Origin: Escherichia coli
GTDB lineage: Bacteria; Pseudomonadota; Gammaproteobacteria; Enterobacterales; Enterobacteriaceae
Reading direction: 5' to 3' (one strand)
Length of the DNA stretch: 64,000 nt
NCBI RefSeq assembly: GCF_036507355.1
Contig: NZ_AP027878.1
In this document: in pieces, positions 56,938 through 57,713 of the stretch
Layout: each line of letters starts with the position of its first letter
Position numbering within the stretch: the first letter of the stretch is position 1
Notes under the pieces: generated by a model
Told to the model about the DNA's origin: nothing
The model's database searches: none
Seen by the model: only the letters and a program-made list of their open reading frames with translations
Position numbers and translations under genes: made by a program

Positions 56938-57013
56938 TGGTGGCCCCTACCGGACTTGAACCGGTGACCGTGCGATTATGAGTCGCCAGCTCTAACCACT
57001 GAGCTAAAGGGCC
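56938..57013 (-). tRNA. tRNA with CAU anticodon (Met or Ile2)
   Basis: Cloverleaf GGCCCTT / AAGGGCC, anticodon loop CTCATAA, T-arm GGTTCAAGTCC, encoded CCA. Confidence 0.85.
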
Positions 57014-57016
57014 GGA

Positions 57017-57124
57017 TTACTGTTTCCTGAGTGCTTCTATGACGCCAGCAATACCGCCTACAACTATGCCAGCAATGACAACGAGAACAATTGGATGCTT
57101 GTCAGCAAAATCCCAGAAGCCCAT
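57017..57124 (-). CDS. 35-aa hydrophobic peptide
   Basis: MGFWDFADKHPIVLVVIAGIVVGGIAGVIEALRKQ; start overlaps the upstream stop (TGATG). Confidence 0.4.
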   Translation of the reverse strand: MGFWDFADKHPIVLVVIAGIVVGGIAGVIEALRKQ

Positions 57125-57288
57125 CACTGATCCTTAGAAGCTGTTTTTAATATCGGCCATACCAATGTTACAGCTACTGCTACCAACGCCCCGTCGGATA
57201 AAACCGACAGGATTGTGCTGGTGAAATCCACCAGCACAGATAGCACGAGAAAAACCAAAGCCAGAATTAGACGTGCTTTTATAACCAT
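57124..57288 (-). CDS. 54-aa hydrophobic peptide
   Basis: MVIKARLILALVFLVLSVLVDFTSTILSVLSDGALVAVAVTLVWPILKTASKDQ; ATGA overlap with the TerB-like gene stop. Confidence 0.4.
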   Translation of the reverse strand: MVIKARLILALVFLVLSVLVDFTSTILSVLSDGALVAVAVTLVWPILKTASKDQ

Positions 57289-57713
57289 CAGATATACTGT
57301 TCCAGTGGTAATTGAAGAGCCTGGGCAATTTTCTTCAATTGCTCCTGCTCTTCTGCCCCAATGCCATCCTGGTCAGCAATATCAATGCATAGGCACAGAA
57401 CATCTACCGCATCATTAGTTCCAGACACGTCAGCCAGTTCACGTAAAGCCTGGGCATTCGCTCGGCGCGGCGAGGCTTCATATTGAGCGCGAATATTGGC
57501 GCTCATCTGGGCAATTTCACCGGAGAACGGCGCAAAGGCAGGAAGTGCTGCAATGGTTTTTTCCAATACTGCAATTTCTTTCGCATCGCAGGTGCCGTCA
57601 GAGTATGCAATGGAATATGCGCCCCAGACAGTCGCTTCCACCGCATCACGGTTTTCCATCTTCTTGACTCCGCCAGCCGCTTTGCGGAATTTCTTTTTGA
57701 GAATGCCGAGCAT
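57288..57713 (-). CDS. TerB-domain protein (TciA-like)
   Basis: 141 aa; TerB-like pattern (LEKTIAAL ... DAVDVLCLCIDIADQDG ... EEQEQLKKIAQAL). Confidence 0.55.
   Translation of the reverse strand: MLGILKKKFRKAAGGVKKMENRDAVEATVWGAYSIAYSDGTCDAKEIAVLEKTIAALPAFAPFSGEIAQMSANIRAQYEASPRRANAQALRELADVSGTNDAVDVLCLCIDIADQDGIGAEEQEQLKKIAQALQLPLEQYI

Follow-up and report, generated by a model that had tools for sequence, protein, structure and literature searches.

In ter systems the TerB protein works together with the membrane protein TerC (PMC12054061, PMC11003894). A TerB-domain gene also occurs in bacteriophage P1, where it is annotated as tciA and is followed by tciB, tciC, the tRNA gene trnI and the helicase gene ban. 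The tciABC genes make up one of eight variable regions in P1-like phage-plasmids (PMC9603915), and CRISPRi found tciA, tciB, tciC, trnI and ban each to be non-essential (PMC10695390). A literature search for a functional test of TciABC, including a tellurite, colicin or phage phenotype, found none, and the annotation says 'by homology'.

Here we describe this locus in a 64,000-nt stretch of Escherichia coli contig NZ_AP027878.1 (assembly GCF_036507355.1), hereafter the window, whose source is bacteriophage P1 (99.9% identity to AF234172/NC_005856 over 1401 nt). TciA resembles the TerB of the terZABCDE(F) tellurite-resistance and phage-inhibition operons in its domain family and fold, its paired acidic D-G...E motifs and the presence of a presumed membrane partner. 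However, ter operons have TerC, TerD and further components, whereas TerC, TerD, TerZ, TerA and TerE are missing near the tci genes and the presumed partners of TciA comprise 54 and 35 aa. Within the 8.4-kb annotated region we found no TerC or TerD, the neighbours being tRNAs, tciB, tciC, ban, dbn, upl, plp and dmt, and the analogy with ter operons is therefore loose. As the best explanation as a whole we propose, with a probability of roughly 0.7, that the tciABC-trnI segment of the P1 ban operon is a dispensable membrane cassette beside a conserved tRNA-Ile2.

Organization of the tciABC-trnI segment

The features discussed below are, in coordinates of the window:

57288..57713, minus strand: tciA, encoding a 141-aa cytoplasmic TerB-domain protein
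57124..57288, minus strand: tciB, encoding a 54-aa hydrophobic DUF3927 protein; start codon and tciA stop codon overlap in TGATG
57017..57124, minus strand: tciC, encoding a 35-aa hydrophobic protein, single-pass as predicted; start codon and tciB stop codon overlap in TGATG
56938..57013, minus strand: trnI, a predicted tRNA-Ile2 with anticodon CAU and encoded CCA (ARAGORN)
57023..57738, minus strand: exchangeable cassette, from blastn break-points and junction sequences
56744..56937, minus strand: structured RNA element, unannotated, between trnI and ban
55287..56651, minus strand: ban, DnaB-type replicative helicase, the downstream operon gene (ORF and annotation)
58445..58598, minus strand: tRNA-Thr(UGU) and tRNA-Asn(GUU), upstream members of the ban operon
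59250..59280, minus strand: P1ban promoter with overlapping bivalent C1 operator (Op72/Oban), the operon control point (annotation)

The three open reading frames and the CAU tRNA of the original prediction are all present on the minus strand where they had been placed, and the GenBank annotation of P1 carries the same four features as tciA, tciB, tciC and trnI. This anatomy is real and is not new, the genes having received their names and this interpretation in the P1 genome annotation about two decades ago; because the locus is already annotated there, its detection adds little. The locus differs from the P1 reference in nothing of substance; a single-base difference lies in the adjacent RNA element, at 56912.

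The overlap proposed between the tciA stop and the tciB start exists, although its sequence is TGATG (...ATCTGATGG...) with 1 nt shared and not ATGA. The tciB/tciC junction is TGATG with a 1-nt overlap, as had been noted, and the tciC stop indeed adjoins the tRNA, at a distance of 3 nt (TCC after TAA) instead of the 4 nt given before. A Shine-Dalgarno sequence (GAGG) lies 7 nt before the tciA ATG, and tciC has AAGGA 7 nt ahead of its start, for which GTG at 57127 is an alternative that would give 36 aa. The Shine-Dalgarno sequence of tciB is weak, so translational coupling between tciA and tciB is inferred from the geometry of the junction. An RNA-seq preprint reports that tciA and tciB/C respond oppositely in a delta-hfq host, which hints at post-transcriptional uncoupling.

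TciA is a soluble TerB-fold protein

The assignment of a TerB domain to the 141-aa product is upheld by a Pfam match above threshold and by the TerB-like fold of the structure model. The match to Pfam TerB (PF05099) covers two stretches and is marginal in score (28.4 bits, cut-off 24.4, E = 2e-6); most of the 120 TciA homologues listed carry a precomputed PF05099 assignment. Searches of NCBIfam matched nothing meaningful. Because a PDB sequence search with TciA returned no TerB entry, fold searches were needed. The structure model is confident (pLDDT 86.6), the predicted fold is all-helical and TerB-like, and the sole full-length structural matches were the TerB-like entries 2H5N and 2OU3. An EF-hand or centrin identity, raised by PDB sequence matches at E > 0.1 around D-x-D-G, was rejected as a low-complexity acidic-loop resemblance.

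Two acidic D-G...E motifs have been proposed to bind metal in TerB. In TciA these are D39-G40...E46 and D116-G117...E122, which show no or almost no variation in 30 sequences, the 31%-identical allele of P7/D6 among them; residues 1–19 form a basic, disordered N-terminal tail. We conclude that TciA is a soluble TerB-fold protein; its peptides have been found by LC-MS/MS (PMC9024508).

Two small hydrophobic proteins, TciB and TciC

Two hydrophobic membrane peptides had been expected behind the TerB gene, linked by stop/start overlaps, and the sequence bears this out, with GRAVY values of 1.49 and 1.03 and 15-residue windows reaching ~3.0 marking both products as strongly hydrophobic. TciB matches Pfam DUF3927 (PF13064) over positions 1–53 of 53 (E = 7e-31, 106.4 bits, cut-off 25) and PHROG 1470, and probably forms a two-helix membrane hairpin. 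Residues D21-F22-T23, S28 and D32-G33 are invariant in seven homologues (identities 29–96%). TciC matches PHROG 23152 (E = 3e-27) and is kept in SJ46 (74%), where 13 nucleotide changes have left its frame and length intact. An unannotated 37-aa counterpart with 31% identity is carried by D6 and shares with TciC the pattern M-x-F-W...D-K-x-P...L-R.

These observations are hard to reconcile with tciB and tciC being untranslated and tciA being the sole gene, a reading that we regard as scarcely credible even though peptides have been reported for TciA only and a strong Shine-Dalgarno sequence is absent at tciB. The matches to families (DUF3927, PHROG) are strong, polar residues within the hydrophobic stretches are invariant in distant homologues, the frame and length of tciC are preserved in SJ46 and at 31% identity in D6, and the stop/start overlap is maintained in all contexts examined. 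Shotgun mass spectrometry, moreover, routinely misses small hydrophobic proteins. Judged by sequence conservation, tciB and tciC are protein families and more than chance ORFs.

An exchangeable cassette beside a conserved tRNA

The trnI product has an Rfam tRNA score of 64.7 bits. The gene shares 89.5% identity with a chromosomal gene that 5425 of 5426 E. coli genomes annotate as tRNA-Ile, and GenBank depositors describe it as an ileX-like tRNA-Ile with 89% identity to ileX. It has in common with E. coli ileX and ileY the CAU anticodon, the encoded CCA and the pairs C4:G69 and C5:G68, which are present in its acceptor stem GGCCCTT...AGGGGCC and are the acceptor pairs used by TilS. These features point to an ileX-type tRNA-Ile2 and not a tRNA-Met, expected to carry lysidine and to read AUA. 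This codon provides 19.6% of the Ile codons in the window's long ORFs (12.0 per 1000 codons). It is also comparable to the rare-codon tRNAs of Stx and lambdoid phages. Whereas lambdoid prophages carry a CAU tRNA within tRNA clusters, trnI of P1 is situated between protein genes of an mRNA operon.

In RCS47-type P1-like phages exactly 57023–57738 is replaced and the tRNA is retained (blastn break-points 57739 and 57022), the right-hand exchange junction being a shared CAGTAATCC directly before the tRNA. The tci genes form a discrete cassette, which in other P1-like phages is exchanged with the tRNA untouched. In place of tciABC, the RCS47-type phages encode an SPFH/Band_7 lipoprotein of 275 aa together with a membrane protein of 78 aa. 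This replacement resembles tciABC in occupying the identical slot and in bringing together a small membrane protein of several helices and a larger protein associated with the membrane, but the proteins are unrelated and the lipoprotein (Band_7, E = 1e-30) faces the periplasm. PADLOC returned just one weak, chance-level match for the replacement cassette.

A TerB gene followed by a DUF3927 gene with 1–4 nt of overlap is found in P1, P7, SJ46 and D6, in E. coli lambdoid prophages, and in Yersinia and Nissabacter. The lambdoid pairs of E. coli, Yersinia and Nissabacter resemble that of P1 in that their TciA is 72–86% identical and DUF3927 comes next with a 4-nt overlap; they differ from it in lacking tciC and the downstream tRNA and in having an unrelated upstream leader. 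Their location is either the interval separating the holin from the Q antiterminator or a tRNA cluster, or the vicinity of the immunity region. We considered whether the genes move as a unit that brings its own promoter, in which case a leader would be common to the P1 and lambdoid copies, and rejected this, as their homology begins exactly at the tciA ATG.

The original prediction had described the TerB gene as fused to the tRNA, a wording that implies a functional link. Such a link is not supported: RCS47-type phages keep the tRNA with the cassette swapped, the stop and the tRNA are 3 nt apart in P1, P7 and SJ46 but 9 nt apart in D6 and 27 nt apart in RCS47, and the lambdoid TerB+DUF3927 pairs have no tRNA downstream. 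If the 3-nt abutment were functional, ribosomes at the tciC stop would cover the acceptor stem, and tciC translation and tRNA-Ile2 maturation would regulate each other. The very short gap in P1, P7 and SJ46 would suit such an arrangement, as would the use of AUA by tciB and tciC themselves (2/4 and 2/5 of their Ile codons). The wider gaps in D6 and RCS47, the retention of the tRNA with its CAGTAATCC leader in phages that carry the other cassette, and the tRNA-less pairs elsewhere nevertheless make it very unlikely. The abutment of tciC and the tRNA is most likely the product of cassette exchange beside a conserved backbone tRNA and not of selected coupling.

Control by the ban operon and possible functions

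The order of the operon is P1ban/C1 operator, dicF-like region, tRNA-Asn, tRNA-Thr, tciA, tciB, tciC, tRNA-Ile2, RNA element, ban and dbn. The C1 operator has a perfect 17-mer, ATTGCTCTAATAAATTT, at 59264–59280 on the minus strand and a copy with 2 mismatches at 59253–59269 on the plus strand; operator-like C1 sites number 15 in the window against 0.36 expected. Membership in one operon with the helicase gene ban, as proposed originally, is supported by the shared strand, the C1 operator at P1ban upstream and the lack of a terminator-like site in between, none having been detected on the minus strand from 59070 to 56400. Near the promoter, between P1ban and the remaining operon, there is a terminator-like hairpin (59071–59090, minus strand). 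A single transcript from P1ban through tciABC-trnI into ban is most likely; it rests on annotation and older literature, with presumed read-through past this hairpin. A strict sigma-70 consensus scan of 56400–59500 found no site and also missed the annotated P1ban, and is therefore uninformative on internal promoters.

Could TciABC be an anti-phage or superinfection-exclusion system that guards the P1 lysogen, as the original prediction was inclined to think? Several traits would fit: links have been reported between ter operons and both the inhibition of phages and resistance to colicins (PMC12054061, PMC9603915), the locus is among the eight variable regions of P1-like phage-plasmids (PMC9603915), it is exchanged for another membrane cassette as happens in defence hot-spots, and small membrane proteins are typical of exclusion functions. 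However, the upstream promoter is repressed by C1 and the strict scan detected no other promoter before tciA, so that the genes should be off in lysogens. Searches of PADLOC-DB 2.0 with TciA, TciB and TciC gave no family match at E <= 1, the position of the lambdoid pair in the Q-dependent late region before the holin is one of the lytic phase, and the literature reports no phenotype. Overall we consider this system unlikely, and a defence role in lysogens in particular is unlikely because the operon is C1-repressed and hence silent there.

The same lambdoid context raises the alternative that TciAB(C) modulates the moment of lysis or the division of the host cell in the lytic phase, with membrane energisation or holin triggering as conceivable targets. 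The pair of E. coli and Nissabacter lies directly upstream of the holin-endolysin cassette and downstream of Q and a tRNA cluster, and the historical annotation contains 'inhibition of cell division'. In P1, however, the genes are part of an early operon distant from the lysis genes, and CRISPRi knock-down caused no plating defect (PMC10695390). Adjacency to the holin is itself weak evidence, since the Q-holin interval is a generic moron slot, in which stx sits in Stx phages. We therefore hold a role in lysis or division to be quite improbable.

Proposed mechanism

On the reading that we prefer, in which tciABC is a dispensable membrane cassette of the ban operon, lifting of C1 repression in early lytic growth would yield one transcript running from P1ban through the segment. 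After translating tciA, ribosomes would start anew at the TGATG junctions, so that TciA, TciB and TciC would be made together and could assemble at the inner membrane. By analogy with ter operons, the two-helix TciB and the single-pass TciC may act as an anchor, taking the role that TerC has for TerB, and TciA may be the acidic, divalent-metal-binding cytoplasmic head. The complex would be a dispensable accessory that serves neither replication nor assembly and probably alters the physiology of the host envelope or membrane during infection, with stress tolerance, exclusion or colicin tolerance as examples. RNase P would cleave 3 nt past the tciC stop, freeing tRNA-Ile2 and parting the tci message from the ban message, and tRNA-Ile2 would support the heavy use of AUA codons by P1.

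A structured RNA element between trnI and ban

Between trnI and ban we observed an unannotated RNA element of ~190 nt whose structure is supported by covariation. It has 29 pairs and is 97.8% paired; compensatory changes occur at 7 of the pairs, among them alignment columns 136/148 and 169/181, and a GGCACAU/AUGUGC pairing is invariant. The element is conserved among P1-like, lambdoid and Uetakevirus phages and is present in 1825 of 5426 complete E. coli genomes (about a third) and annotated in none of them; Rfam gave no match, whether 5 kb were searched at E <= 1 or 371 nt at E <= 10.

Elements of the put type are taken here as those that lie just downstream of an early promoter and suppress terminators through the zinc-binding domain of the RNAP beta' subunit, and that have homology to HK022 put, two stems and a length of ~70 nt; mutations in the rpoC zinc-binding domain can block HK022 put (PMC9378689). 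In lambdoid phages a pL-like promoter that lies downstream of cI precedes the start of the RNA element by ~20 nt, and putL occupies that position in HK022 (PMC9378689). The closest known counterparts of the element are putL and putR of HK022 and the 'putL-like antiterminator RNA' of HK639. The hairpin, CGGCG...CAUGCGUCG, is common to HK022 and HK639 putL and is the only part that aligns; when the HK022 immunity region was searched with the element by blastn, matches were no longer than 15 nt and, except for the stem-I stretch, at chance level. Unlike put, the element is ~190 nt and not ~70 nt long and has additional helices and invariant blocks, and the promoter-proximal position seen in lambdoid phages is not found in P1 or the Uetakeviruses. 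We accordingly call the element put-like by position and 5' hairpin, with antitermination as a putative function. A hairpin upstream of tciA was also considered as the remnant of a second put-like element and was rejected, its local alignment score being 19 against a shuffled mean of 18.5.

A more far-reaching interpretation, which we advance tentatively and hold to be doubtful, is that the interval from tciA to ban is a layered expression device. It would consist of an exchange slot holding either TciABC or the SPFH lipoprotein, a message-cutting tRNA-Ile2, and the put-related ~190-nt RNA, which would make RNA polymerase terminator-resistant before ban. Many lambdoid and Uetakevirus phages would then use this RNA class as their N-independent antitermination element. 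Separately, TciABC would be a minimal TerB machine working without TerC or TerD.

Implications

The tciABC genes are among the few gene sets of P1 with a stress- or defence-flavoured annotation, and the TerB+DUF3927 pair that they include is common in enterobacterial prophages. If it is true that TerB works here with only two tiny membrane partners, the locus would offer a way into the ter systems, which are poorly understood. The clean exchange point beside trnI may be useful for engineering P1-type phage-plasmids, and the adjacent, unannotated RNA element is potentially a more valuable lead than the tciABC locus itself.

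The tciABC-trnI locus of P1

The segment at window positions 56938–57713 is the tciABC-trnI locus of bacteriophage P1 itself and was thus already known. P1 records (AF234172, AF234173, NC_005856) are 99.9% identical to a 1401-nt query around it and annotate the same features as tciA, tciB, tciC and trnI, with ban and dbn next in order. Correcting the prediction and mapping the cassette boundaries are minor additions to this. All three open reading frames and the CAU tRNA were found where the original prediction had placed them:

57288–57713, minus strand, tciA, 141-aa ORF
57124–57288, minus strand, tciB, 54-aa ORF
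57017–57124, minus strand, tciC, 35-aa ORF
56938–57013, minus strand, trnI, 76-nt tRNA with anticodon CAU

The ATGA overlap proposed for tciA and tciB is slightly off, since the sense strand reads TGATG, the sequence correctly given for the tciB/tciC junction; at both junctions the stop TGA and the start ATG have one base in common. Likewise, the claimed 4 nt between the tciC stop and the tRNA are in fact 3 bases (TCC) after TAA. A ribosome-binding site (GAGG) lies 7 nt 5' of the tciA ATG and AAGGA lies 7 nt 5' of the tciC start; sequence inspection revealed no good Shine-Dalgarno for tciB. The computed hydrophobicity of both small peptides is very high, in line with the prediction.

The same strand continues upstream with tRNA-Thr, tRNA-Asn, a "dicF-like region" and the P1ban promoter, controlled by a bivalent C1 operator (a perfect 17-mer at 59264–59280 and a second site at 59253–59269); 15 operator-like sites were observed in the window vs. 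0.36 expected. Scanning 56400–59500 for terminator-like sites on the minus strand returned a single one, at 59071–59090 close to the promoter, and none between tciA and ban. Given the annotation, the C1 operator and the terminator-free stretch from tciA to ban, the predicted operon with the helicase is therefore the known ban operon.

Several further features were observed in this region. The minus-strand terminator-like site is a strong hairpin (59071–59093; GCCCATCTTCGGGTGGGC and then T7) that falls inside the annotated dicF-like region; P1ban lies about 170 nt upstream of it, and every other gene of the operon lies downstream. Close upstream of tciA, in operon sense orientation, Rfam gave a match below threshold to the STnc100 sRNA family (57747–57866, minus strand; 33.4 bits, E = 1e-4, where the gathering score is 47). 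Between tRNA-Thr and tciA, the stretch 57855–58220 of the spacer contains a 25-nt motif, GTAGATTGGGATATGA[A/C]CCCGTTAC, twice, about 270 nt apart:

57893–57917, 25-nt motif, first copy
58172–58196, 25-nt motif, second copy

Each copy sits in an inverted repeat (e.g., arms 58121–58143 and 58198–58220 with 91% complementarity), and SJ46 lacks the segment between them. The annotated opposite-strand ORFs upl and plp begin in or cross these motifs, and their composition is odd, being rich in C, R and S; plp also overlaps tRNA-Thr. This stretch may be structured RNA instead of protein-coding sequence.

Protein families

The TerB-like assignment of TciA holds, the Pfam TerB threshold being just passed (28.4 vs. 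24.4 bits), and TciA matches the "tellurite resistance" family PHROG 632 at 7e-62. A database search retrieved 217 relatives; the 120 listed are 72–100% identical, derive from Enterobacterales, and, wherever a source supplied a name, are called after the TerB family, after tellurite/colicin resistance or after TciA itself. A second tciA allele in P7 and D6 is only ~31% identical, and even there an ENRD motif and two D-G...E motifs are invariant. The AlphaFold model from the TciA alignment is confident (pLDDT 86.6, pTM 0.82) and comprises six helices with a basic disordered N-terminal tail. TciB matches DUF3927 over its entire length (E = 7e-31); between its two hydrophobic stretches, homologues as distant as 29% identity all retain D-F-T, S and D-G. 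TciC matches a PHROG family at 3e-27. An unannotated 37-aa TciC-like ORF of the same pattern overlaps the tciB stop in phage D6 (L003, 2772–2885, minus strand). No PADLOC model matches TciA, TciB or TciC. The locus falls into the TerB domain family and DUF3927. It has the TerB family in common with the ter system but, lacking both TerC and TerD, is not one itself.

Cassette exchange beside the tRNA

The genes had been described as fused to the tRNA; instead, relatives swap the tci cassette and keep the tRNA, with stop-to-tRNA gaps of 3 nt (P1, P7, SJ46), 9 nt (D6) and 27 nt (RCS47). In RCS47-type phages, similarity to P1 ends at window position 57739 and restarts at 57022, such that exactly the three tci genes and their ribosome-binding site are replaced (57023–57738, counterpart 1941–2985 in RCS47, L004), and CAGTAATCC immediately 5' of the tRNA is common to both. 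The substituting segment codes for a 78-aa membrane protein with two helices and, overlapping it, a 275-aa SPFH/Band_7 lipoprotein (E = 1e-30). This SPFH cassette precisely replaces tciABC in many P1-like phages, and GenBank labels for the lipoprotein vary ('serine protease', 'lipoprotein', 'SPFH domain protein'). In P7, a D6-type tciA is joined to a P1-type 3' half of tciB and a P1-type tciC, indicating recombination within the cassette. The slot beside trnI behaves as a site where membrane-directed cassettes are swapped. A survey of P1-like phage-plasmids counts tciABC among their eight variable regions and finds it missing in nearly half of one subgroup (PMC9603915).

TciA homologues with 72–86% identity also occur in E. 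coli and Nissabacter lambdoid prophages and in a Yersinia prophage. In every case DUF3927 follows the TerB gene with a 4-nt overlap, and tciC and the following tRNA were absent from all cases examined in these three hosts. The pair lies between the Q antiterminator plus tRNA genes (CAU, Lys, Thr, Gly) and the holin in the E. coli prophages, and between a DNA methyltransferase gene plus tRNA genes and the holin in Nissabacter. The position between Q and holin is the site of Shiga toxin genes in Stx phages. Nucleotide similarity of the prophage copies to P1 starts exactly at the tciA start codon. Since these pairs occur without tciC or the following tRNA, the conserved unit is TerB plus DUF3927, a common prophage moron; tciC is an addition specific to the P1/D6 lineage, and the tRNA is part of the backbone.

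ARAGORN called trnI as tRNA-Met from the anticodon alone, an assignment we rejected as its relatives are tRNA-Ile genes. Along its whole length it shares 89.5% identity with a chromosomal gene that 5425 of 5426 complete E. coli genomes annotate as tRNA-Ile, and the depositors' note puts its identity to ileX at 89%. The acceptor stem retains C4:G69 and C5:G68, which are the TilS determinants. AUA accounts for 19.6% of Ile codons (12.0 per 1000 codons) in the 32 long ORFs of the window, and its usage in E. coli is well below this, so a phage-borne tRNA-Ile2 makes sense. In D6, an unannotated CAU tRNA (L003, 2687–2762, minus strand), 9 nt past the TciC-like ORF, is nearly identical to trnI, with one T-arm change.

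A conserved RNA element between trnI and ban

A by-product of the tci analysis worth recording is a conserved segment of ~190 nt (56744–56937, minus strand) within the 280-nt gap between trnI and ban. Its conservation is 77–95% in other P1-like phages and ~78–80% in Uetakevirus and lambdoid phages, the latter including Stx2a/2c, cdtI, mEp460 and mEp390. It occurs in at least 120 IMG/VR contigs and in 1825 of 5426 complete E. coli genomes; none of the E. coli records listed annotates it, and Rfam 15 gave no match. In 14 diverse copies, a structure of 29 pairs, hand-derived from these same sequences, is 97.8% paired vs. ≤44% with partners slid; seven pairs show compensatory changes, and 0 of 500 shuffles matched the covariation score. 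The window differs at position 56912, in the stem-I loop: its plus strand reads A (U in the RNA), compared with C (GGCACAU) in the P1 reference and in each of the other 13 aligned copies. Apart from this one cell (pair 18/103), the GGCACAU/AUGUGC complementarity is invariant.

In P1 and D6 the element follows tRNA-Ile2, and in Uetakeviruses it precedes tRNA-Arg(UCU). In TL-2011b (L006), an annotated 'hypothetical protein' (2165–2416, plus strand) overlaps a tRNA-Arg(UCU) gene on the other strand (2346–2422) and is probably a mis-annotation, because its translation contains the peptide typical of a translated tRNA gene (...GFEPATNRLEGG...). In lambdoid phages, the element starts ~20 nt past a pL-like promoter, just downstream of a cI-type repressor gene, the place corresponding to putL in HK022 (PMC9378689). 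The 5' hairpin CGGCG...CAUGCGUCG is common to the element, HK022 putL and the "putL-like antiterminator RNA" annotated in HK639, but the rest of the element is different and much larger. It is an attractive hypothesis that the element may act as a put-like processive antiterminator before ban. A 2011 paper on put-like RNAs may have already described part of this RNA class.

Proposed function of TciABC

Starting from the demonstrated gene order, overlaps, folds and families, operator and cassette boundaries, we propose that the genes would be transcribed only once C1 is inactivated and that the TGATG junctions would couple translation, leading to co-production. TciB (a hairpin) and TciC (a single pass) would then tether TciA, an acidic and probably metal-binding protein, to the inner membrane, in parallel to the TerB-TerC pairing reported for ter operons (PMC12054061, PMC11003894). 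RNase P would free the tRNA, thereby splitting the tci and ban messages. In a CRISPRi study, tciA, tciB, tciC, trnI and ban were non-essential for plating (PMC10695390); two TciA peptides were detected in a virion preparation, whose authors discounted them as non-structural (PMC9024508). Our literature search found no functional test of tciABC. A role as a defence system protecting the lysogen is less likely. Both known contexts are lytic-phase positions: P1 carries the genes in an early operon under C1 control, and lambdoid phages carry them in the Q-dependent late region. Because of these contexts, and because the alternative cassette is also membrane-directed, TciABC is most likely an envelope or membrane accessory during lytic growth.
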